Positions 11,458-60,692 of a stretch of DNA of 64,000 bases are shown here, piece after piece (positions within the stretch are counted from its first letter, which is position 1; the number at the start of each line of letters is the position of its first letter). Source of the DNA: an uncultured Actinomycetes bacterium (lineage in GTDB: Bacteria; Actinomycetota; Thermoleophilia; Gaiellales; Gaiellaceae). The stretch spans positions 76,280 through 140,279 of the forward strand of contig CAWITF010000004.1 of the NCBI GenBank assembly GCA_963838985.1, given 5' to 3'. The translations under genes were made by a program, and so were the position numbers. The notes under the pieces are model-generated. The model ran no database searches and was not told where the DNA came from. It saw nothing but the letters and a program-made list of their open reading frames with translations.

Positions 11458-11483
11458 GCTCGGATAGCTGAAGCTATCCGAGC
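11458..11483 (+). terminator. Perfect 11-bp hairpin (GCTCGGATAGC TGAA GCTATCCGAGC) 40 nt after the ligase gene
   Basis: Read directly from the sequence. There is no U-tract, which is common in GC-rich genomes. Confidence 0.6.
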
Positions 11484-13988: not shown

Positions 13989-14522
13989 TCAGCTGCAGCC
14001 GGCCAACGCCGCCCACCGCTGCTGCACGCGGGCGACGTAGGTGAGCGACTCGTCGTTCGGCGCCCCGCCCGCCCGGTCGACGGCGGTCGGGCCCGCGTTG
14101 TAGGCGGCGAGCGCGAGGTCGGTGCGCGAGAAGTGGTGCAGCATCTGCTCGAGGTAGCGCGCGCCCGCGAGCACGTTCGTCGACGGCTTGTCGACGTTCA
14201 GCCGCAGCTCCGCACCCGTTGACGGGATCACCTGCATCAGCCCGCGCGCGTCGGCTTTCGAGCGCGCGTTCGGCCGGAACTCCGACTCGACCTGCGCGAC
14301 CGCGACGAGCATCGAGAGCTGCAGCCCGCTGTCGCGCGCCGCGCGCACGAACGCCGGACGGAAGCGCTCGGGGATCGGGCAGCGCCCGCTCGGCGCCTCG
14401 TTCTTCGCGGGAATCGCGGGCAGGTGCGTCGCAGCAACGACCGCGTGCGACCGTGCCGCCGCCGCCGAGGCGACCGACGCAAGGCACGTGAGGACGAGGA
14501 GGACGCTGAGCCGCAGAGCCAT
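13989..14522 (-). CDS. Secreted lytic transglycosylase (SLT domain)
   Basis: Tail of ORF 13989..15137 from MALRLSVLLVLTCLASVASA (signal peptide). Motifs AVAQVESEFRPNARSKADARGLMQV and AAYNAGP. Confidence 0.8.
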   Translation of the reverse strand: MALRLSVLLVLTCLASVASAAAARSHAVVAATHLPAIPAKNEAPSGRCPIPERFRPAFVRAARDSGLQLSMLVAVAQVESEFRPNARSKADARGLMQVIPSTGAELRLNVDKPSTNVLAGARYLEQMLHHFSRTDLALAAYNAGPTAVDRAGGAPNDESLTYVARVQQRWAALAGCS

Positions 14523-14536
14523 TGAGCGGGGGATTC

Positions 14537-15373
14537 TACGGAGGATTCGAGCGCGATGGAGGCGCGCCTGACGAGCGCCTTCGCGACCGCCACTTTCCAG
14601 CCGGTGCGCGGCAGCGGCGTCGCCTCGTCGAGTGCCTCGGGAGAGGCCAGAAGCCAGGGAATCGGAGCCACACCGGCGAGCGCGATGCGGGTCTCGCCGC
14701 CGATCCGGGCGGCGGCGACCCCGACCTGCGGGAACGACCAGCGCTTGCGGTCCATCGCCTTCAGGTACGTGCTCGCCTCGACCGCGGGCAGCGCGAGCTC
14801 GAGGATCAGCTCGCCGGGCTCGAGCGCGACGACGTCGCGGTTGCCCTCGTCGGGCAGCCGGTAGAGCTCGGCGAGCGGGAACTCGCGGCGATTCGTCCTG
14901 ACGCGCGCGTCGAGCGCGAGCAGTGCCGCCGCGACGTCGGACGGATGGGCGGACGCGCAGTAGTCGTTCGCGAAGATCGCGTGCTCGCGGTGCTCGCCTT
15001 CGCGCGCGTGACAGCGGTCGCCGCCGTGCAGATGGCAGGGGTACTTGAGGCGCCAGTACCAGCACCGCGTCGCCTGCAGCAGGTTGCCGCCGACCGAGCT
15101 CATGTTCCGCAGCTGCGGAGATGCCGCGAGCCGGCACGCCTCGCGCAGGGCGTCCGGGATCGCGCTGCTGGCCTCGAGCTCGGCGAGCGTCGTCCCCGCG
15201 CCGATCACGTCGCCGCGAACGCCGCGCGGGACGATCCCGCGGATGTCGACGAGCGTGTCCGCCTCGAGGATCCCGTCGCGCAGGAGCGGGACGACCTCGG
15301 TCCCGCCGGCAAGTAACACGTTGTTACTTGCTCCGTCGAGCTCGGCGATGCTAGACGGCCGCAGGAGCTCCAC
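14537..15373 (-). CDS. FAD-binding medium subunit (CoxM/XdhB-like) of a xanthine-dehydrogenase-family enzyme; the 3' end is uncertain
   Basis: ORF 14237..15421 from GTG 15373: VELLRPSSIAEL...LLAGGTEVVPLL...MSSVGGNLLQATRCWY. The family-typical length suggests it ends near 14540-14570, but the open frame runs on to 14237 across the SLT gene. A frame error near 14545-14575 is possible. Confidence 0.7.
15309..15331. repeat. Copy 1 of a 23-nt A/T-rich palindrome family: GCAAGTAACA CGT TGTTACTTGC (perfect 10-bp arms)
   Basis: Read directly from the sequence. It lies 42-64 nt inside the coxM-like CDS and encodes ASNNVLL with atypical A/T-ending codons. Related copies are at 31675 and 53881. Confidence 0.8.
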
Positions 15374-17606
15374 GCTTCTCCTTGCGCTTCGCGGCTTCGA
15401 GCGCGCGCAACATCTCCTCACGCGTGATCGGCAGCTCGTGGACGTCGGCGCCCGTCGCGTCGCGGATCGCGTTCGCGACCGCAGCGGCGAGCGGGATGAT
15501 CGGCGGCTCGCCGAGCCCCTTCGAGCCGAGGTTCGTCAGGTGCTCGTCCGGCACATCGACGAACTCGCAGATGATCTCGGGCACGTCGGCGACGGTCGGC
15601 ATTCGATACGCGTCGAGCGTCGTCGTCAGGATGCGCCCGGTTTCCGGGTCGTGCAGCCGCTGCTCGGAGAGCGTGTGGCCGATGCCCTGGATGATCCCGC
15701 CCTCGACCTGGCTGCGCGCGCCGAGCGGGTTGATGATCCGCCCGACGTCGTGCGCCGCGGCGACGCGCTCGACCTCGACCTCGCCGGTCTCCACGTCGAC
15801 TGCCACCTCGACGACCTGGATCCCGAACGTGAGCACGCTCATGCCGGTCGGGTTCGGGCCGCGGGCGCCCTTGCCGAGGATCTGCGCGTCCTCGAGGATC
15901 TCGAGCAGCTTCTCGAGCGGCGTCGACATGTTGCCGTCGGCCGAGAACACGAGCCCGTCCTTGATGTCGAGGACGCGCTCCTCGAGGTGGTAGCGCTGCG
16001 CGGCGATCTCGATGATCTGCCGCTTCGCGTCGGCGGCAGCCGCACGCACGGCCGGACCGACCGACGGCGTCGTCGAGGAGCCGGCGGAGAGCGTCGCGTA
16101 CGGGCCGCGCGCGCTGTCGCCGAGCACGACGTCGACGCGGTCGAGCGGGACGCCCAGCTCCTCCGCGGCGATCTGCGCCATCGCGGTGCGCGTGCCCGTG
16201 CCGATGTCCTGCATCGCGGTGACCACGGTGATGCGGCCGTCCGAGGTGACGCGCGTCCACGCATACGACGGCGGGCCGCCGCCGCCGTACCAGATCTGCG
16301 AGGCCATGCCGATGCCGTGCTTCCGCGTCTCGGTCGAGCGCGCGCGGACCTCGTCGCGGCGGTCCCAGTGCTTCTGCGCGAGGTCGTAGCACTGCATCAG
16401 GTTCTTCGACGAGTACGGCTTGTCGTCGTTCGAGTCGGCGTAGTTGCGCCTGCGCAGCTCGAGCGGGTCGAGCTCGAGCTTCTCCGCGAGCTCGTCGATC
16501 AGGCACTCGAGCCCGAACGTCCCTTCGACGAAGCCCGGCGCGCGGAACGCCTTCATCGGCGGCGTGTTGATCTTCGCACCGTGCCGGATCGTGCGCACGT
16601 TGTCGCACGCATAGAGCATCGTCATCGGGCCCTCGGTCGTCGCCGACCAGCCGGACGCGCCGACGGCGTTGATGAACTCGCCGCCGAGCGCGACGATCGT
16701 CCCGTCGCTGCGGGCGCCGACCGTCAGCCTCTGAATCGTCGCGTTGCGGTTGCCTGCAGCGGTGTTCTCCTCGCGCCGCGTCAGCGCGCATTTCACCGGC
16801 CTGCCGGTCTGCTTCGCGAACGCGGCGGCGACGAAGGTCTGCTCGTCGGCGCCGTTCTTCGAGCCGAAGCCGCCGCCCATGTACTCGCACACGACACGCA
16901 CCTTGTCGCCGGGAATCCCGAGCTCGGCGGAGATCTGGTTGCGGACGCCCCAGATGTACTGCGTCGAGATGTAGACGTTCAACGTGTCGCCGACCCATTC
17001 GCACACGGCCTGGTGGGTCTCCATCGAGTTGTGCAGCACGACGGACGTGCGATACGTCCCCTCGACGACTACGTCGGCGTCGGCAAGCGCGCGCTCGTAG
17101 TCGCCGCGCTCGGTGCGGACGGAGTCACTCGTGAAGAGCTCGCGCGCGACCGCTTCCTCGGGATCGAGAACCGCCTCGAGCTGCTCCCACTCGACGCGGA
17201 TCGCGTTCAACGCGGCGCGCGCCTGCTCGAGTGTCTCGGCGGCGATCGCTGCGACCGCCTCGCCGGCGTAGGTCGCCTCCTCGACGAGGCCGTTCGCCTC
17301 GCCGGGGCCGAGTGCGCCGCGCACTCCGGGCTGCTCCAGCGCCGCGGTGAAGTCGATCGAAGCGACGCGGGCGTGCGCGTATGGCGAGCGGAGGATCGCC
17401 GCGTGGAGCATCCCGGGCAGCTGGATGTCGGCCGTGTACCGCGCCTCGCCGCGCACGCGCTCGGGTGCGTCCTTGCGAATCGCGTCCCGGCCGACGACCG
17501 CCTGCGGGCCGGCGGGCCACTGCGTCAGCGGATCCTCCTCGATCACGAGCCACACCTCTTCGAAGCGGCCCTCGACCTCTTTCTCGGTGCGGATCAGTCT
17601 CGCCAA
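15351..17606 (-). CDS. Molybdopterin-binding large subunit (CoxL/XdhA-like) of a xanthine-dehydrogenase-family enzyme
   Basis: ORF 15351..17756. GEARYTADIQLPGMLHAAILRSPYAHARV..., and GGGFGSK-type segments. A TTG at 17606 is proposed as the start, giving a 13-nt overlap with coxS. Confidence 0.85.
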   Translation of the reverse strand: MARLIRTEKEVEGRFEEVWLVIEEDPLTQWPAGPQAVVGRDAIRKDAPERVRGEARYTADIQLPGMLHAAILRSPYAHARVASIDFTAALEQPGVRGALGPGEANGLVEEATYAGEAVAAIAAETLEQARAALNAIRVEWEQLEAVLDPEEAVARELFTSDSVRTERGDYERALADADVVVEGTYRTSVVLHNSMETHQAVCEWVGDTLNVYISTQYIWGVRNQISAELGIPGDKVRVVCEYMGGGFGSKNGADEQTFVAAAFAKQTGRPVKCALTRREENTAAGNRNATIQRLTVGARSDGTIVALGGEFINAVGASGWSATTEGPMTMLYACDNVRTIRHGAKINTPPMKAFRAPGFVEGTFGLECLIDELAEKLELDPLELRRRNYADSNDDKPYSSKNLMQCYDLAQKHWDRRDEVRARSTETRKHGIGMASQIWYGGGGPPSYAWTRVTSDGRITVVTAMQDIGTGTRTAMAQIAAEELGVPLDRVDVVLGDSARGPYATLSAGSSTTPSVGPAVRAAAADAKRQIIEIAAQRYHLEERVLDIKDGLVFSADGNMSTPLEKLLEILEDAQILGKGARGPNPTGMSVLTFGIQVVEVAVDVETGEVEVERVAAAHDVGRIINPLGARSQVEGGIIQGIGHTLSEQRLHDPETGRILTTTLDAYRMPTVADVPEIICEFVDVPDEHLTNLGSKGLGEPPIIPLAAAVANAIRDATGADVHELPITREEMLRALEAAKRKEKRGAPAAV

Positions 17607-30178: not shown

Positions 30179-30215
30179 GACGGCTCTCGCCGGCTACGCG
30201 CCGGCGAGAGCCGTC
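30179..30215. terminator. 16-bp perfect hairpin at convergent gene ends (GACGGCTCTCGCCGGC TACGC GCCGGCGAGAGCCGTC)
   Basis: Read directly from the sequence. It overlaps the last codons of the minus-strand aminotransferase gene. Confidence 0.6.
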
Positions 30216-31385: not shown

Positions 31386-31679
31386 ATGACCACGTTGACC
31401 CCGCCCCGCGAGGAGCTCGACACCGGCGAGGGAACGGGCCTCGGCAAGCCGTGGCACGTGATCGTCCTGAACGACGACCACAACACGTTCGAAGGCGTCG
31501 CGTTCGCGCTCTCCTCGGTGCTGCCGGCGACGTCGTACGACCAGGGCATGAAGCTCGCGAACCGCATCCACTCGACCGGGCAGGCGATCGTCTGGTCCGG
31601 CGTTCAGGAGCAGGCCGAGCACTACTGGGAGCAGCTGGGCGGGCACGGGCTGACGATGGCGCCGCTCGAAAGCAGCTAG
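31386..31679 (+). CDS. clpS: ATP-dependent Clp protease adaptor ClpS
   Basis: ORF 31359..31679: PWHVIVLNDDHNTFEGVAFAL...A..LA..IH..G.A. The start is taken at the internal ATG 31386, which is preceded by TACGAT plus 6 nt. Confidence 0.8.
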   Translation: MTTLTPPREELDTGEGTGLGKPWHVIVLNDDHNTFEGVAFALSSVLPATSYDQGMKLANRIHSTGQAIVWSGVQEQAEHYWEQLGGHGLTMAPLESS

Positions 31680-31697
31680 TGACAAGTTGTTACTTGT
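31675..31697. repeat. Copy 2 of the 23-nt A/T-rich palindrome family: GCTAGTGACA AGT TGTTACTTGT
   Basis: It spans both stop codons of the convergent clpS (TAG 31677..31679) and osmC-like (TAA 31692..31690) genes. A 17-nt core (AGTGACAAGTTGTTACT) is identical to copy 3. Confidence 0.8.
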
Positions 31698-32091
31698 AGT
31701 GCCACGCGTACGTCGGCTTCACCGTCAGCGACGCGCCGACGAAGCAGTCTTCCTCCGCGTCCGCGAGCAGCTTCGCGGCCTCGTCGTCGCCGGGATGCGG
31801 CGAGAAGCGCACGGTCAGGTCGACGTCGCATTCGACGATCGCGAAGCGGTTGTCGGTGTCGCGGCGCGTGACCATCGCGCGTGCCGAGCCTTTCGCGTCG
31901 GCGACCTCGACGTCCAGTCGTCGCGCGTGGAAGCGAAGGCTCGTCAGCGAGCAGCGGACGAGCGCCGCGAGGAGCAGGTGCTCGGGCGTCCACGCCTGGT
32001 CGACGACGAGCTCGGTGCCGTCCTCGGTGCGCAATGTGCCGCCCTCGTGCAGGTCGATCGCATAGCGGAACTCGCGCGCTTTGACGGGCAC
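31690..32091 (-). CDS. OsmC/Ohr-family peroxiredoxin-like protein
   Basis: ORF 31690..32313, with GTG 32091 proposed as the start: VPVKAREFRYAIDLHEGGTL...PEHLLLAALVRCSLTSL...AEEDCFVGASL. Confidence 0.7.
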   Translation of the reverse strand: MPVKAREFRYAIDLHEGGTLRTEDGTELVVDQAWTPEHLLLAALVRCSLTSLRFHARRLDVEVADAKGSARAMVTRRDTDNRFAIVECDVDLTVRFSPHPGDDEAAKLLADAEEDCFVGASLTVKPTYAWHYK

Positions 32092-44422: not shown

Positions 44423-44450
44423 GAAGACGGCGGCCCTGGCCGCCGTCTTC
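44423..44450 (+). promoter_or_regulatory. 13-bp perfect inverted repeat (GAAGACGGCGGCC CT GGCCGCCGTCTTC) ending 13 nt before the selD start codon
   Basis: Read directly from the sequence. A second hairpin (CGCGGGA...TCCCGCG) lies at about 44361-44388. Confidence 0.5.
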
Positions 44451-52023: not shown

Positions 52024-52629
52024 CTATCCAATAGGGGTTCCTGCGCCGCCCATCCCGCCGAAAACGGCAAAAGGATTCCCTGGGACCGTCTCCCAGACGG
52101 CCTCCCCGCCCGGCTCGACCTCGCCGTGGACGCGGGCCGCGAGCGCTTCGGCGTCCTCCTTCGAGGCGGCGCCGACGATCAGGTACTGCCAGCGGCGCTC
52201 GACGGAGTAGCCCTCCGACTCGAGCGTGTCCGCGAGCGCGCGTGCGTCCGCGTGCGACTTGCACGCCACGCGTACCTCCCAGGGGGCGTAGCCACGGTCG
52301 AGCTGCTCCTCCTCCCAGGTCTCGGTCGGCGGCTCGTCGTCCCAGCGCTCCTCCTCGTCGAGCCAGTGCTCGACCGGCCCCGTGACCGCCGCCGTCTCGT
52401 TGTCGCGGAGCTCCGCCTGGACGACCGACCGCGCCCGCTCGGCCTCCTGGCGCGTGGCGGCGTAGACGAAGATCTGCTCGCCGTCCTGCGACACCGCGAG
52501 GCGACGCGACTCGAGGTCGCGTGCGAGCTCGGAGGCCTCGTCGTTCAGGCCGAGGCCGAGCCGCTCGAGGAAGCCGCGCCCGCCCTCCTCGTCGATGTCG
52601 ATCCGGATCCGGTAGTCGTCGGCGGCCAT
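52024..52629 (-). CDS. Hypothetical acidic protein with two similar alpha/beta repeats
   Basis: Tail of ORF 52024..53157 from MAADDYRIRIDIDEEGG. ATGA overlap with the fadB-like gene. No family recognised. Confidence 0.6.
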   Translation of the reverse strand: MAADDYRIRIDIDEEGGRGFLERLGLGLNDEASELARDLESRRLAVSQDGEQIFVYAATRQEAERARSVVQAELRDNETAAVTGPVEHWLDEEERWDDEPPTETWEEEQLDRGYAPWEVRVACKSHADARALADTLESEGYSVERRWQYLIVGAASKEDAEALAARVHGEVEPGGEAVWETVPGNPFAVFGGMGGAGTPIG

Positions 52630-54515
52630 CAGGCGGGGATCTTGCCGTACTCGGCGATCCCAAGCTGCTCGAGGTGCTTCGTGATGCCACCGAGCAAGAA
52701 CGGGTAGCCGGCCCCGAGGATCAGGCAGGCATCGACGTCGGCCGGGGAACCGACGACGCCCTCGTCGAGCAGATGCCGGATCTCGTCGGCCGCGGCCTCG
52801 AGCACTGCCTGCCGGATCTCGTCGACGGTGCGCGGTGCATCGGCGAGCGGCGCCGGCTCCTCGCCGTTCGCAAGCGCGGCGAGCGCGGGGGAGAGCGGGA
52901 AGCGATCCGGGTACGCCTCGTGCATCGTCTCGAGCACGTGGTTCGCGACTCGCGGGCCGACCATCTGCAGCACGACCGACGGCGCCATCGGCATCCCGAG
53001 CGACAGCATCGCCTCGTCCGTCTCCTCTGCCGTGTTCCCGTGCTCGAGCGCGTCGAGCAACACGCGCGTGACGCGCGTGAGCACGCGGTTGACGACGAAG
53101 CCCGGCGCGTCTGCCACGAAGACGCCGCGCTTCTTCAGGCGCTTGACGACGTCCCACGCAGTCGCGAGCACCTCGTCGCTCGTCTGCGTCGTGCGCACGA
53201 TCTCGACGAGCGGCATCAGCGCGACGGGATTGAAGAAGTGCAAGCCCACATCGGCGCCCATCTCCTCGACCGAGAGCGACGACGTGTTGGTGGCGAGAAT
53301 CGCGCCCGGCGTGACGCGCCGGACCTCGGCGAAGACCTCGCGCTTGACGTCGAGCTCCTCGAACACCGCCTCGAGCACGAGGTCGCAGCCTTCGAACTGC
53401 TCCCAGCCCGTGCCACCGTCGACGATCGTCGCGAGGAACGGCTTCTTCGCGCCGACCTCTTCGCGGATCGTCGCGAGTGCGTCGTCGACACGGCTCTGCT
53501 CGAGGTCGCGCAAGACGACAGGTACTTCGAGGCGACGAAGGAAGAGCGTCGCGAGTTGCGTCGCCATCAGGCCCGCGCCGACGATGCCGACCTTCTGGAT
53601 GCGGCGCGGCTTCGCGTCGGGAAGCTCCGGTGGCCGCTTCGAGCGCCGCTCGACGACCGTGAACGCATACGCAGAGGCCTGCGCCTGTGGGCTGACGAGC
53701 AGCTCGGCCATTGCAGCCTCTTCCTGCGCGTAGCCCTCCTCGATCGTCCAGTCCTTTGCGCCGGCGATCAAGTCGAGTGCAACGTACGGCGCGCGCGTCG
53801 CGCCGTGCACCGCGTCGTCGACGCGCGAACGCGTCTTTCGTAGAACTGTCTCCAGCTCCGACCAGTCGGGCGTCTCCCGAGCAAGTGACAAGTTGTTACT
53901 AGCGACGTCGCGCGCGAACGCCAGGGAATCGTCGACGAACTCGACCGGATCGAGGACGGAGTCGACGATGCCGAGCTCGAGCGCTTCGTCGGCCTTCAGC
54001 AGCTTGTTCTGGCGCAGCGGGTTGAGCACGATCACCTTCGCGGCCGCCTCGGGTCCGATCAGGCGCGGAAGCAGCTGCGTGCCGCCCCACGCCGGGATGA
54101 TCGAGAGCGCGACCTCGGGAAAGCCGATGTGGCGCACGTTCGCGGCGAGCGTCCGGTAGTCGCAGTGCAGCGCGAGCTCGAGCCCGCCGCCGAGCACAGC
54201 GCCGTTGATCGCGGCGACGGTCGGGAACGGCAGCGCGCGGATGCGCGCGAACAGCTCGTGGCCAGCGCGAACGCCCTCGCGCGGATCGGTGACCTTCGCG
54301 AACTCGTCGATGTCGGCGCCGACGCAGAAGACGAACGGCTTGCCGGTGAAGACCGCTGCGGTCCAGTCGCCCCGCTCGAGCTCGTCGAGCACCGAGACGG
54401 CCGACTCGAAGGCCGACCGGCCGAGCGTCGTCGGCTTCCGGTAGTCCTCGCCGTTGTCGATCGTGACGAGCGCGACCGAGCCGGCGGGATTCACGGTGAA
54501 CCTCGTCTCCGCCAT
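52629..54515 (-). CDS. fadB: Fatty-acid oxidation multifunctional protein (enoyl-CoA hydratase plus 3-hydroxyacyl-CoA dehydrogenase), FadB-like
   Basis: ORF 52629..54725 from MAETRFTVNPAGSVALVTIDNGE at 54515. Motifs FCVGADI, AAINGAVLGGGLELAL, VGIVGAGLMATQLA. Confidence 0.85.
   Translation of the reverse strand: MAETRFTVNPAGSVALVTIDNGEDYRKPTTLGRSAFESAVSVLDELERGDWTAAVFTGKPFVFCVGADIDEFAKVTDPREGVRAGHELFARIRALPFPTVAAINGAVLGGGLELALHCDYRTLAANVRHIGFPEVALSIIPAWGGTQLLPRLIGPEAAAKVIVLNPLRQNKLLKADEALELGIVDSVLDPVEFVDDSLAFARDVASNNLSLARETPDWSELETVLRKTRSRVDDAVHGATRAPYVALDLIAGAKDWTIEEGYAQEEAAMAELLVSPQAQASAYAFTVVERRSKRPPELPDAKPRRIQKVGIVGAGLMATQLATLFLRRLEVPVVLRDLEQSRVDDALATIREEVGAKKPFLATIVDGGTGWEQFEGCDLVLEAVFEELDVKREVFAEVRRVTPGAILATNTSSLSVEEMGADVGLHFFNPVALMPLVEIVRTTQTSDEVLATAWDVVKRLKKRGVFVADAPGFVVNRVLTRVTRVLLDALEHGNTAEETDEAMLSLGMPMAPSVVLQMVGPRVANHVLETMHEAYPDRFPLSPALAALANGEEPAPLADAPRTVDEIRQAVLEAAADEIRHLLDEGVVGSPADVDACLILGAGYPFLLGGITKHLEQLGIAEYGKIPA
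53881..53903. repeat. Copy 3 of the 23-nt A/T-rich palindrome family: GCAAGTGACA AGT TGTTACTAGC
   Basis: It lies inside the fadB-like CDS, where it encodes ASNNLSL with atypical A/T-ending codons. This is the same frame relative to the motif as copy 1. Confidence 0.8.
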
Positions 54516-55748: not shown

Positions 55749-56387
55749 ATGCAGATGAACTGGGCGGAGCGAGCGGAGAACGCGATCGCGCGCTACCGCG
55801 GTGGCGAGACGCGCGGCGCCGACCAGCGGCAGCTGACCCAGCTCGCGAACGCCGCGTGGGCCGCGGGGCTCGCGCTGCTGATGGACGGCCGCCGCGACGA
55901 GGCCGCCGAGTGGCTCCGTCGAGCGGCGGCCCGCTACCGCGAGAGCTGGGACGCCGGCGCTCCCGCCGACTCGTGGGGACGGCCGATCGCGGCGATGAAG
56001 GCGCTCCTCCTCGCGGGCGACGACGCAACCGATGCAGCGCGCTGGGCGCTCGACGCAGGCGCCGACGCCGCCGAGTCGCCGATCGGCCGCTACGCCGCGG
56101 CGCTCGCGCACCTCGTCCTCGGCGAGGACGTCGAGGCTCGCACGCTCGGCTCGACGCTCCGCGGCCGCGACGACTTCCCGGAAGCCGTCGCCGACGCGGT
56201 CGTCACCGTCGCCGCTGCCGACCGCGCCGGCTATCTGCTCGCCGTCGAAGACGTGCTCGAGTCGTTCGAGCGGCGCACGGACTTCCTCGAGGATCTGCCG
56301 GTCGCCGACACGGTGCTCGTCTTCCAGCGCCTCGCAGCGGAGCGCGATGCGGCCGTCGACCTGCCGCCCTCGCCCGTCCTTCCCTAG
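55749..56387 (+). CDS. Hypothetical all-helical (TPR-like?) protein
   Basis: ORF 55749..56387. Protein-like composition. The second ATG, at 55755, sits 7 nt after a TAGACT hexamer and may be the real leaderless start. Confidence 0.55.
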   Translation: MQMNWAERAENAIARYRGGETRGADQRQLTQLANAAWAAGLALLMDGRRDEAAEWLRRAAARYRESWDAGAPADSWGRPIAAMKALLLAGDDATDAARWALDAGADAAESPIGRYAAALAHLVLGEDVEARTLGSTLRGRDDFPEAVADAVVTVAAADRAGYLLAVEDVLESFERRTDFLEDLPVADTVLVFQRLAAERDAAVDLPPSPVLP

Positions 56388-56420: not shown

Positions 56421-56783
56421 ATGCACGGAGGCTCGCTTCGCATTCTCCACCAGGCGCTCCTCGGCGAGGCGTTGATGACAGGCGGGTCAGCGGTTTTCGT
56501 CAGTGACGACGAGGGCCGGTATCTCGCCGTGAACGACGCCGGGCTCGAGTTGCTCGGCTACACGCGCGAGGAGCTCGCCGGGCTGAACGCGCGCGACGTC
56601 ACCGTGCGCACCGAGGACGAGCTCGCCGAGGTCTACGCGATGTTGAAGCGCAACCGCTCGATCCAGAGCACTGCGCAGCTGCGGCGCAAGGACGGCTCGC
56701 TCGTCACGCTCACGTACGTCGGGCTCGAGGCGACCGTCGGCCGGCTGCCCGTGTACATCGGGATCAGCGAGCCGCTCACCTAG
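56421..56783 (+). CDS. Stand-alone PAS-domain protein
   Basis: ORF 56421..56783: VFVSDDEGRYLAVNDAGLELLGYTREELAGLNARDV...RRKDGSLVTLTY. Confidence 0.65.
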   Translation: MHGGSLRILHQALLGEALMTGGSAVFVSDDEGRYLAVNDAGLELLGYTREELAGLNARDVTVRTEDELAEVYAMLKRNRSIQSTAQLRRKDGSLVTLTYVGLEATVGRLPVYIGISEPLT

Positions 56784-57451
56784 AGCTTCGCGGCGGCTGC
56801 GGCATCGAGCACCGCAGTCGTCTGCCCATCGGTGGCGCGTACGAGGCTGCCCGGGATCGTGCGCGTCGGGTCGCCCGCGAATGCAGCGAGCGCCGCCTCC
56901 GCCTTGTTCGCGCCGGTGACGAGGAACAGCACCTCTCGGGCGCGTCGCAGCATCGGCAGCGTCAGCGTGATCCGGTCGACGTACGGCTCGAGGTGCGCCT
57001 CCGCGCCGACGACGCGCCGCTCGGTCTCGTCGAGCGTCGGCTGCTCCGGGTAGAGCGATGCGACGTGCCCGTCGGGCCCGAGCCCGAGCAGCACGAGGTC
57101 GAAGCGCTCGAGCGAGCCGAGCTCCTGGTCGTAGAGCGTCGCGCCTTCCTCGCGCCCGAGCTCGCCTCGCATCCGGTGCACCTTGCCCGCCTTGACGCGG
57201 TCGAGGAGCGCCGCCTTCGCCATGCCGTAGTTCGATCGCTCGTCGTCCTGCGGCACACAGCGCTCGTCCCCCCACCAGAGCTCGACGGCGGTCCAGTCGT
57301 TCTCGAGCGCCGCCGCTTGCTCGTACGCGATCCGCGGCGAGTCGCCGCCGGTGAGCACGACGTGACCGCCCGCGCGTGCGGCAGCGGCGAGCCGCTCCGC
57401 GACGTTCGCCGCGGGGTCGTCCACGACGACGATGTCGATGTCCCTAGCCAT
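56780..57451 (-). CDS. pgl: 6-phosphogluconolactonase
   Basis: ORF 56780..57451: VLTGGDSPRIAYE, WWGDERCVP, LLGLGPDGHVASL. Confidence 0.85.
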   Translation of the reverse strand: MARDIDIVVVDDPAANVAERLAAAARAGGHVVLTGGDSPRIAYEQAAALENDWTAVELWWGDERCVPQDDERSNYGMAKAALLDRVKAGKVHRMRGELGREEGATLYDQELGSLERFDLVLLGLGPDGHVASLYPEQPTLDETERRVVGAEAHLEPYVDRITLTLPMLRRAREVLFLVTGANKAEAALAAFAGDPTRTIPGSLVRATDGQTTAVLDAAAAAKL

Positions 57452-58245
57452 CTTCCGCGAGCTCTCGTGCCCGCGTCATCGCGGCCTGAATCGCGTTCAG
57501 GAACGCTGCTCGCACCCCGGCCTGCTCGAGCTCGCGAATTGCAGCGATCGTCGTGCCGCCCGGCGAGGTGACGGACTCGCGCAGCTCGACCGGATGCATC
57601 TTCTCGTCGCGCAGCAACGTCGCCGTGCCGAGCATCGTCTGAACGACGAGCGTCGTCGAGATCTCCCGCGAGAGACCGAGCAGGATCCCGGCCTCGATCA
57701 TCGCCTCGGCGAGGAGCGCGAAGTACGCCGGGCCCGGAGCCCGAGACCGCAGTGACCGCGTCCATCGCCGACTCCGGCACCCGCACGACGCGGCCGAGGT
57801 GCGAGAGCACCTCCTCGGCGAGCGCCAGCTGCTCGTCGTCCGCGTGCGAGCCGGCGGCGATGCCTGCCATCCCCTCGTGCACCGTCGACGGCGCGTTCGG
57901 CATCGCGCGCACGACCGGGACGCCCTTTGCGATCCGTTCCTCGATGCGAGCCGTCGTGATCGCCGCGGCGACCGAGAGCACGGTCTGACCGGTCGAGAGG
58001 ATCGAGCCGATCTCCGCGAGCAGCGCGTCGATGTCCTGCGGCTTCACGGCGATGACGACGACTGCGGCGCCCTCGATCGCGTCGGCGTTCACCGTCGTCG
58101 CCTCGACGCCGTACCGCTCGTGCAGCTCAGCCACACGGTCCTCGCTGCGCGCGGTGACGACGAGCTCGCTCCAGCCGGAGCTGAGGAGCCCCGAGAGGAG
58201 GGCTTCGCCGATGCGGCCCCCGCCGATGATCGCGATGCGCTGCAT
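57444..58245 (-). pseudogene. proC: Pyrroline-5-carboxylate reductase; frame break near 57729
   Basis: ORF 56962..58245 (MQRIAIIGGGRIGEAL...VVRAMPNAPSTVHEGMAG...AVSGSGP) continues in ORF 57444..57701 (MIEAGILLGLSREISTTLVVQTMLGTATLL...VTSPGGTTIAAI). Confidence 0.85.
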
Positions 58246-58254
58246 GCGCAGAGG

Positions 58255-59115
58255 TTACGCGGCGCGCGGCGTCGCGACCGGCAAAAGGCCGCGTGCGTAC
58301 CCCGCGAGCATGTACATGCTCGCGAGCCCTGCCCACTCGCCGTACGGCTCGAGCAGCTCTGCCGTCTCCCAGCCTTCGACGGGACGGCCGCGCATCGCGC
58401 GAAGCAGCTTGACGAGCCCGAGGTCGCCGACGAGCCCGAAGTCGTAGCGCCCGAGCCCTTCGAGGCACACGACGCCGACCGACCACGGCCCGAGCCCGCG
58501 CTCGCGATCGAGGCGCGCGACGACCGCGTCGGTCGGCACGTCGTGAAGCCGCTCGAGCTCGATCGTCCTGCACATGCGGACGAGCGACGCCGCACGCCGG
58601 GTGTGCAAGCCGAGCGCGCGAAGCTGCGACGGGGCGAGTGCGGCGAGGTCGCGCGTTGTCGGCGAGACGTGCAGGCGCTCGCCGCCCGGCGTGCAGGTCG
58701 TGCGGATGATCTTCTGCTCCAGGCGCCGCGCGCGCTTCGCCTCGATCAACTGGCCGCAGTACGCGCGGAGCAGCGCCTGCGCGACCGTCGGCAGCCGGAT
58801 CGGCCGCAGGCCGCGGAGCGCGCGCGACGCCGGGCCGAGCATCGGGTCTTTGCGCACCCGCCGCAGGAAGTCGGAGTGGTCGTCGTCGAGCGCGAGGATC
58901 CAGCGCAGCTTCGCCGCGCCGGCCTCCGACTCGGTGCGCAGCTCGACCGTGCCGTCCGGCGCTTGCCACGCCCGTGCGAGCTCGACCTCGTCGCCGATCG
59001 CGAGCACGCACGTGAAGAGCCCGTCGCGAAACGTCCGCGTCGCGTCGCTCGAGAGCCGGGCGGAGAAGGCGAGCGAGAAGGGACCGCGAGGCTTGACCGC
59101 GAGCGCGAAGCTCAA
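58255..59115 (-). CDS. HhH-GPD DNA glycosylase (AlkA-like 3-methyladenine glycosylase II)
   Basis: ORF 58255..59256 with TTG 59115 proposed as the start, overlapping the upstream stop as TTGA. Contains GLGPWSVGVVCLEGLGRYDFGLVGDLGL. Confidence 0.7.
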   Translation of the reverse strand: MSFALAVKPRGPFSLAFSARLSSDATRTFRDGLFTCVLAIGDEVELARAWQAPDGTVELRTESEAGAAKLRWILALDDDHSDFLRRVRKDPMLGPASRALRGLRPIRLPTVAQALLRAYCGQLIEAKRARRLEQKIIRTTCTPGGERLHVSPTTRDLAALAPSQLRALGLHTRRAASLVRMCRTIELERLHDVPTDAVVARLDRERGLGPWSVGVVCLEGLGRYDFGLVGDLGLVKLLRAMRGRPVEGWETAELLEPYGEWAGLASMYMLAGYARGLLPVATPRAA

Positions 59116-60664: not shown

Positions 60665-60692
60665 GCGGGCGGGGACGCACGTCCCCGCCCGC
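60665..60692 (+). terminator. 13-bp perfect GC hairpin (GCGGGCGGGGACG CA CGTCCCCGCCCGC) after the peptide ORF
   Basis: Read directly from the sequence. Confidence 0.7.

Follow-up and report, generated by a model that had tools for sequence, protein, structure and literature searches.

What function does a short A/T-rich palindrome serve inside the coding sequence of a high-GC bacterium, and why does it recur? We addressed this question for a 64,000-nt stretch of DNA from an uncultured Gaiellaceae bacterium (GenBank assembly GCA_963838985.1, contig CAWITF010000004.1, positions 76,280 to 140,279; hereafter "the window"), which has a GC content of 69.9%. A first-pass annotation had reported a 23-nt palindrome at three positions, and we found it at exactly those positions. 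Copy 1 (15309-15331; GCAAGTAACACGTTGTTACTTGC) lies inside a gene for an FAD-binding subunit and has perfect 10-bp arms flanking a 3-nt center (GCAAGTAACA-CGT-TGTTACTTGC); copy 2 (31675-31697; GCTAGTGACAAGTTGTTACTTGT; arms GCTAGTGACA-AGT-TGTTACTTGT) fills the gap between a convergent clpS gene and OsmC-like gene; and copy 3 (53881-53903; GCAAGTGACAAGTTGTTACTAGC; arms GCAAGTGACA-AGT-TGTTACTAGC) lies in a variable linker of a FadB-like gene. Even when as many as three mismatches are allowed, the degenerate pattern from that annotation occurs only at these three places in the window, where 0.02 copies are expected by chance and none of 100 dinucleotide-preserving shuffles reached the observed count. 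The word is also the only A/T-rich perfect palindrome in the window with arms of at least 9 bp. The shuffle expectation, together with recurrence of the word in a scan of other genomes, rules out chance or a codon artifact. We propose, with a confidence that we put midway between doubt and certainty, that the palindrome is a dispersed, order-wide duplex-DNA site bound by a homodimer of a ~97-residue helix-turn-helix (HTH) protein of the Gaiellales.

The initial description of a three-member family proved to be a great understatement, since genome and metagenome scans indicate that the family spans the whole order. Our search of one genome per species for the exact pattern CWAGTRACANNNTGTYACTWG yielded at least 120 matches; among the 120 listed, 118 are in metagenome-assembled genomes of ~70% GC that are labeled as Gaiellaceae, Gaiellales, Thermoleophilia, or unclassified Actinomycetes/Actinomycetota, with the other two being A/T-rich chance matches. 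A metagenome scan for sites with an A·T center also yielded at least 120 matches, and 114 of the 120 listed are in high-GC sequence. The family consensus is (G)CCAAGTAACA-NNN-TGTTACTTGG(C). Complementarity is at background two positions outside the palindrome core, and there is no variable stem extension, ruling out the possibility that the sites are insertions into pre-existing terminator stems. We detected no isolated half-sites in 946 kb. Since half-sites never occur alone, the functional unit is the whole palindrome, and a single-word signal of the DNA uptake sequence type is ruled out. A scan of viral contigs gave only eight matches, all on contigs of 35-63% GC; this is below the ~70% typical of the family, suggesting that these matches are due to chance, and we therefore rejected a phage origin. 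A full-text literature search, by sequence and by Gaiellales intergenic palindromes, revealed no prior description.

The placement of the sites relative to genes is strongly non-uniform. Genes were called with a simple GC3-based caller that reproduced the Pfam-verified genes of the window. In the genome set (155 sites), 60 sites separate convergent gene ends, 51 separate the end of one gene from the start of the next, 24 fall within coding sequence, and just two separate divergent starts; the corresponding numbers for the metagenome set, with its A·T centers, are 39, 38, 22, and two. The median distance of a site from the gene end is 15 nt, and 56 of the 183 adjacent gene ends in the genome set use a stop codon supplied by an arm of the palindrome (TAA for 45, TAG for 11). 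When the palindrome is part of a coding sequence it is read in one of two frames: x-S-N-x-L/V-L-L for 21 of the 24 coding copies, and Q-V-T-x-C-Y-L for the other three, with the third frame containing a stop. Genes that end at sites are functionally diverse; 111 of them match 152 Pfam families, with no more than three genes per family, which rules out a functional regulon. Separately, we note a polarity of the W positions at sites adjoining a single gene end in the genome set, where the arm farther from the incoming gene reads ...ACTAG ~27 times and ...ACTTG ~8 times; the distal ...ACTAG gives a TAG stop to open reading frames (ORFs) that enter the Q-V-T-x-C-Y frame, as for the ...LVTDCY-stop ending shared by loci L061 and L099. 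We also considered the polarity of the central base as a possible orientation of a recombination site, and dropped this idea because the orientations are mixed.

Sites commonly occur in pairs, for which the most frequent start-to-start spacing is 54-56 bp; other spacings fall into groups of 66-68 bp and 77-80 bp. Pair spacing is kept among orthologous loci despite unrelated spacer sequences. The spacers fold no better than shuffled sequences (mean z = 0.03), which rules out a terminator hairpin between the paired sites, and they differ within one genome, which rules out copies of a site-spacer-site unit resembling a miniature inverted-repeat transposable element.

A further class of pair points to a candidate binding protein. 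A small ORF invariably lies between sites that are 348-399 bp apart; it encodes a protein of ~97 residues, with the consensus ...APRISRRLLEA.VRLDD...PIAETYRRVG.EAERLGLTRPSYEQIRVLVH..RR... This gene is present in 11 of the 118 genome stretches and 10 of the 114 metagenome stretches. The upstream site is at a fixed distance: in 12 of 16 loci, 69-72 nt separate its end from the conserved APR codon. At loci where both flanks are readable, the downstream site overlaps the stop codon of the small gene or follows it within 26 nt. Flanking sites are also found around homologs with only ~40% identity (L130), and in one clade the small gene, flanked by sites, keeps a constant position within a cluster of fatty-acid metabolism genes. 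Clustering at 50% gives 406 representatives of the protein family, of which nearly all are 80-150 aa long and free-standing. Profile and Foldseek searches of Pfam, NCBIfam, PHROGs, and PDB found no significant family. The sub-threshold Pfam matches are to HTH_Tnp_Mu_2 (E = 0.018) and HTH_32, and the weak Foldseek matches are to TnsB (9bw1_M; probability 0.8, 50 residues) and the I-gamma subdomain of MuA (2ezi); we discounted as noise the matches to GapR (6cfy, E = 0.22) and to mycobacterial VapB (19.7 bits, where the cut-off is 60). An AlphaFold2 model (pLDDT 77) predicts five helices, the first three of which (residues 10-60) form an HTH. Two additional features of these loci were apparent. 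The ~58-nt leader of the small gene contains a second motif, ~GGCACGGTT(T)CGTC ... CGTGAC (L073:1590-1647, L058, L066, L091, L129, and L130), that might function as promoter, second operator, or leader element. At the most divergent locus, L130:847-1728, and at no other, a gene for a XerC/D-like tyrosine recombinase directly follows the small gene and its sites.

The association between protein and site extends to the level of individual residues. Positions 9 and 11, at the palindrome center, are G·C, C·G, or A·T, and the choice is genome-specific, with center types being concordant for 82% of comparisons between loci of one assembly and 35% of those between assemblies. The two residues that follow an invariant R-P-S-Y, at the predicted start of the recognition helix, covary with this center. 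EQ is found with ACAG·CTGT in seven loci, with L033 (EQ, and a center of AGGTT) being a near fit; QR, or in one case EG, is found with ACAC·GTGT in six distinct proteins; and ER is found with ACAA·TTGT in L055 and L064. Residues and center switch together between close relatives (EG in L003 versus EQ in L068; QR in L129 versus EQ in L073), arguing against a single ancestral split. When the rule was used predictively, the QR proteins P0043 and P0058 led to ACAC(A/T)GTGT sites, and the EQ protein P0028 led to ACAG(A/T)CTGT sites. Moreover, for metagenome stretches chosen by their A·T center, all ten small genes encode ER, as compared to 45 of 216 members of the family as a whole. We consider the pairing of protein and site to be well supported. 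A palindrome at a fixed distance upstream and covariation between helix and site are what would be expected of a generic autoregulated HTH repressor, and both are present here. By the same rule, the sites in the window, with their CGT, AGT, and AGT centers, would belong with the ER group.

Recognition of duplex DNA is not the only way to account for a palindrome at a stop codon. The first-pass annotation had suggested several roles, among them a site for a dimeric DNA-binding protein and an RNA hairpin. A hairpin could act as a 3' stabilizer, a processing site, or a factor-independent terminator of the transcripts that end there, consistent with the placement of sites at and after stop codons. 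Indeed, the consensus folds at -14.6 kcal/mol (z = -5.5), copy 1 folds at ~-13.5 kcal/mol on both strands, a necessary property of a perfect palindrome, and positions 9 and 11 stay complementary. Nonetheless, 64 of the 108 mismatches between arms are A·A or T·T at W positions, such that pairing is destroyed while A/T is kept. Transition mismatches at sites beside a single direction of transcription would give G·U on the sense strand in eight cases and on the antisense strand in 12. Complementarity ends 1-2 nt outside the conserved core. Intrinsic terminators have a variable, G+C-rich stem and a U-tract, whereas the stem here is A/T-rich and fixed in sequence, and family sites have no U-tract or enrichment of T downstream. 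Copy 3, in the context of its own mRNA, folds no better than shuffled sequences (-5.3 kcal/mol, z = +0.26), and neither the window nor five site-bearing loci have an Rfam 15 match at the gathering score. Lastly, a stem sequence that is fixed across the order and that covaries with a protein helix points to sequence recognition. An RNA hairpin is the least supported of the roles that we considered, and we regard it as very improbable; the gene bracketed by sites and the covariation of its recognition helix with the site center favor the suggestion of a site for a dimeric DNA-binding protein.

The gene-end preference helps to explain the position of copy 1. This copy lies in a minus-strand operon with genes encoding an amidohydrolase, a 2Fe-2S small subunit, a molybdopterin large subunit, an FAD-binding medium subunit, and a MobA-like protein. 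The large-subunit gene (15351-17606, minus strand) is of the xanthine dehydrogenase/CO dehydrogenase family (Pfam MoCoBD_1, MoCoBD_2, and Ald_Xan_dh_C), and the FAD-subunit gene (14237-15373, minus strand) is YagS/CoxM-like (PF00941; Pfam FAD_binding_5 at residues 4-197). Copy 1 is located, as first described, inside the coxM-like gene, which starts with a GTG at 15373; it occupies nt 43-65 of that gene, corresponding to codons 15-22, and encodes A-S-N-N-V-L-L-A using the atypical codons that had been quoted correctly (AGT AAC AAC GTG TTA CTT). The stop codon of the large-subunit gene is a TAG at 15353-15351, and copy 1 begins 19 nt after it. A distance of 19-20 nt from the large-subunit stop is typical of the family, and we therefore read copy 1 as the gene-end site of the upstream gene, a relationship to the upstream stop codon that is shared with most family members and that could not be seen from the window alone. 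Because the FAD-subunit gene overlaps the large-subunit stop, its codons 15-22 had to accommodate the site; only one reading frame, S-N-x-L/V-L-L, would be tolerated in the FAD subunit.

Comparison of orthologs indicates that copy 1 is maintained as DNA. The palindrome is aligned column for column in L030, L024, L139, and L165, which have 75-81% nucleotide identity to the window and retain AGT/GGT-AAC and TTA-CTT/CTG codons at the site. Hence, the earlier proposal that the DNA word is selected on top of its coding function is upheld, with the word being at the same place and its rare Leu codons being kept. The palindrome center differs among these orthologous sites, matching the center type of each genome. 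We extended the comparison to the 120 closest listed FAD-subunit proteins (78-87% identity). Sixty of these carry the encoded peptide, x-S/G-N/D-x-L/V-L-L-A-G-G-T, and 59 instead have G-G-L/R-x-I/V-H-G-G-T, which is three residues shorter. The protein had been described as short at this point; this holds only in comparison to distant CoxM proteins, and relative to the 59 closest word-free orthologs the protein is three residues longer. As an example of the two forms, the site-free L138 reads GGC GGT CTC CCG ATC CAC where L139 reads GCT GGT AAC AGT CTG TTA CTG GCG. Word-bearing and word-free forms are interleaved on a neighbor-joining tree of the rest of the FAD-subunit protein, requiring ~22 parsimony changes, a number that is an upper bound because the tree is weakly resolved. 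The distribution suggests that the site in the cox operon has been repeatedly gained or lost, or exchanged by recombination. Since half of the close orthologs have no site, the cox site is dispensable; where present, it is kept against codon bias. The FAD-subunit ORF also runs ~100 Arg-rich codons (14237-14545, minus strand) past the end of all 120 listed orthologs, which are 272-281 aa long, and enters sequence that in relatives is occupied by a separate SLT-domain gene; a stop codon may have been lost, or there may be a frameshift or an assembly error near position 14540.

Copy 2 is the canonical convergent-stop case, in the context that is typical of the family. Both clpS (31386-31679, plus strand; Pfam ClpS) and the OsmC-like gene (31690-32091, minus strand; Pfam OsmC) end inside the palindrome, with the left arm supplying the clpS stop codon (TAG, 31677-31679) and the right arm that of the OsmC-like gene (TAA, 31690-31692). 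The orthologous region of L234 could not be aligned. Copy 3 lies between the ECH_1 (residues 13-208) and 3HCDH_N (residues 308-469) domains of a FadB-like enoyl-CoA hydratase/3-hydroxyacyl-CoA dehydrogenase (52629-54515, minus strand), where it is read in the frame of copy 1 to give A-S-N-N-L-S-L-A. The closest relative, L226 (79-84% identity), has this copy as well (CGCAAGTGACAAGTTGTCACTTGCG). Of the 120 FadB orthologs listed, P0409 alone has a word-like peptide; the remainder have an ordinary variable linker of equal length or 2-4 residues shorter. Copy 3 would then be a recent in-frame gain within a protein linker.

Relatives also differ from the window at junctions without a site. L234 has a 23-nt palindrome cleanly inserted between ...AGC and TAGC... 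at the position equivalent to ~33232, where the window has none, and L201 has a site between a gene end and the start of proC that is likewise absent from the window. In L117 and L189, a pair of palindromic sites, with no gene, follows the ortholog of the gene at 55749-56387; at this junction, the window has a gene encoding a 120-aa PAS-like protein (56421-56783, plus strand), located before a 6-phosphogluconolactonase gene. Among 116 site clusters, some orthologous junctions recur at least three times across species. As for the total number of sites, we estimate indirectly that there are perhaps ~10-40 clusters per genome, based on 9% of site-bearing stretches holding the apparently single-copy HTH gene, on there being only two second clusters in ~900 kb of flanking sequence, and on the loci L138 (20.8 kb), which is free of sites, and L139, where the cox site is the only one. 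Sites are locally clustered at a scale of 5-40 kb. With three sites within 39 kb, the window has a rather high density.

In the mechanism that we favor, a protein homodimer would use one recognition helix per half-site (C-W-A-G-T-R-A-C-A-N), with the two residues after R-P-S-Y contacting the base pair beside the palindrome center. The site upstream of the small gene has an outward TTG at the position of a -35 element, suggesting that the protein probably represses its own synthesis, and the frequency of pairs ~55 or ~80 bp apart suggests that two dimers cooperate. We infer, with modest confidence, that the protein, once bound, acts as a marker or insulator of gene ends and stops RNA polymerase from reading through from one convergent or tandem transcription unit into the next; this would account for the avoidance of promoters, the location of sites on or after the stop codons of both convergent partners, and the fixed distances within pairs. 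Several observations weigh against the model. Copy number looks low, with too few sites for a general terminator, and promoter-avoiding sites are unusual for a transcription factor. The site is dispensable, given its absence from half of the close FAD-subunit orthologs and the relatives that gain or lack sites elsewhere. With respect to specificity, the ER proteins L136 and L137, which were retrieved by protein look-up, adjoin sites with other centers, such that ER may be less selective, and the covariation is partly confounded by shared ancestry. Lastly, searches of the window by tblastn and with a profile against six-frame ORFs did not find the small gene, and the pairing for this genome is thus a prediction.

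One version of the model, in which the palindromes and protein are a dedicated protein-dependent system of gene ends, has the dimer at the stop codon acting as a roadblock terminator or insulator for convergent and tandem genes, with sites being gained and lost gene by gene while specificity co-evolves genome-wide. We consider this version to be improbable. An alternative that we rate as unlikely, yet as a serious rival, is that the sites are selfish or semi-mobile repeats that are copied into, and persist in, safe havens such as gene ends and dispensable protein loops, with no host function, and that the HTH gene encodes an associated, perhaps transposase-derived, factor. The anatomy is the same as that of the repetitive extragenic palindromic (REP) sequences and RAYT proteins of Proteobacteria (including REPINs and BIMEs): short palindromes at gene 3' ends and in convergent gaps, pairs with fixed spacing, one gene flanked by two units, a genome-specific "master" unit that co-evolves with that gene, and presence that varies among relatives. 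The clean presence or absence of 23 nt at the L234 junction and the patchy distribution of the cox site (60 with, 59 without, ~22 changes) would also be expected of such elements, as would the fact that the only weak likenesses of the protein are to the end-binding domains of the Mu and Tn7 transposases. The half-sites, read outward as TGT...ACA, might even be likened to the ends of DDE transposons. By contrast, the flanked protein is 97 aa long, with no Y1_Tnp Pfam match and no nuclease motif, the alignment of its family has no HUH motif, and there are no longer relatives among the 406 representatives, whereas RAYTs are Y1/HUH transposases. The MuA and TnsB scores are below significance, and we found no catalytic domain, no transposon body, and no full-length element with half-sites as its ends. 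There are no target-site duplications; flanking positions are complementary rather than direct repeats. Coding copies are not 23-nt insertions, with the cox form adding 9 nt and the fadB form ~6-12 nt relative to site-free orthologs. Furthermore, the small gene has conserved synteny in one clade, and sites are found at orthologous positions across genomes that are 75-80% identical. The unit itself also differs from REP sequences in being a symmetric perfect palindrome without a GTAG or GGAG head, in apparently numbering tens rather than hundreds of copies, and in having a mismatch pattern that favors duplex DNA over a single-strand hairpin.

A role in chromosome organization or segregation, like that of parS/ParB, matS/MatP, or NBS/Noc, would explain the preference for gene ends as the placement that does least harm to expression. 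As in those systems, the palindrome is long and near-invariant across a clade, has few copies, is tolerated inside coding sequence, and has a protein gene beside its own sites, as parB does with parS. Local clustering, with three sites within 39 kb in the window and others 6-13 kb apart on one contig, also fits such a role. However, the sequence is not that of NBS, of the 16-bp parS (TGTTNCACGTGAAACA), or of matS (GTGAC-RNY-GTCAC), the protein has no ParB or MatP domains, sites on one contig can be 560 kb apart, and the gene-end bias, embedded stop codons, and fixed 55-bp pairs are foreign to those systems. We think it quite improbable that the sites are anchors of this type. The binding of a dimeric HTH protein, as we propose, has a parallel in BldD of Streptomyces, an autoregulated small HTH repressor whose box is TNAC-N5-GTNA. 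The core of the palindrome, GTAAC-N5-GTTAC, fits this box, and the small gene likewise has an upstream site at a fixed distance. Nevertheless, the protein has no detectable relationship to the BldD or Xre families, and the sites avoid promoters (two divergent versus 60 convergent locations) and adjoin genes with no common function.

Other features of the window and of the metagenomes were noted in passing. The window has further perfect palindromes that are unrelated to the family, at 58303-58324, 11458-11483, 30179-30215, 44423-44450, and 60665-60692; several of these are G+C-rich hairpins with stems of 12-16 bp that resemble ordinary terminators. One of the unrelated palindromes, CGCGAGCATGTACATGCTCGCG, falls within the 3' portion of the coding sequence of the gene adjoining proC. 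proC itself is split over two frames on the minus strand, with its N-terminal part in ORF 56962-58245 and the C-terminal 85 aa in 57444-57701, which points to a frameshift near 57700-57760, due either to a pseudogene or to a sequencing error. Lastly, contigs from metagenome sample Ga0247727 that are not from Gaiellales (L210:3372-4002, L190:596-1053, and L211; GC 0.47-0.52) contain a tandem array with a period of 132 nt. In L210, each period combines a conserved ~95-nt unit, which includes the 23-nt palindrome CCAAGTAACAACTTGTTACTTGG in exact form, with a variable stretch of ~37 nt. The arrangement recalls a CRISPR array, although the repeat would be unusually long for one, and the link to the Gaiellales sites may be a coincidence.

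The Gaiellales are abundant, almost uncultured soil actinobacteria, and we know of no regulatory or architectural DNA motifs described for them. The palindrome family is previously undescribed and its candidate cognate protein uncharacterized, and together they make up a new pair of an order-wide cis-element and a protein family of 406 clusters at 50% identity, none of which is annotated. Specificity within this pair appears to follow a simple code of two residues and one base pair. In practical terms, the word can be used as a lineage marker for binning, and it accounts for the odd islands of TTA and AGT codons in Gaiellales proteins and for their shared C-termini (…SNxLLL, and …VTxCY followed by a stop). 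Should the sites be selfish instead, they would represent a REP-like system that works without an HUH transposase. If our proposal is correct, and the sites are boundaries to which a protein binds at gene ends, these bacteria would delimit their transcription units in an unusual way, and in the coding copies a DNA signal would clearly take precedence over codon usage, and even over protein sequence.

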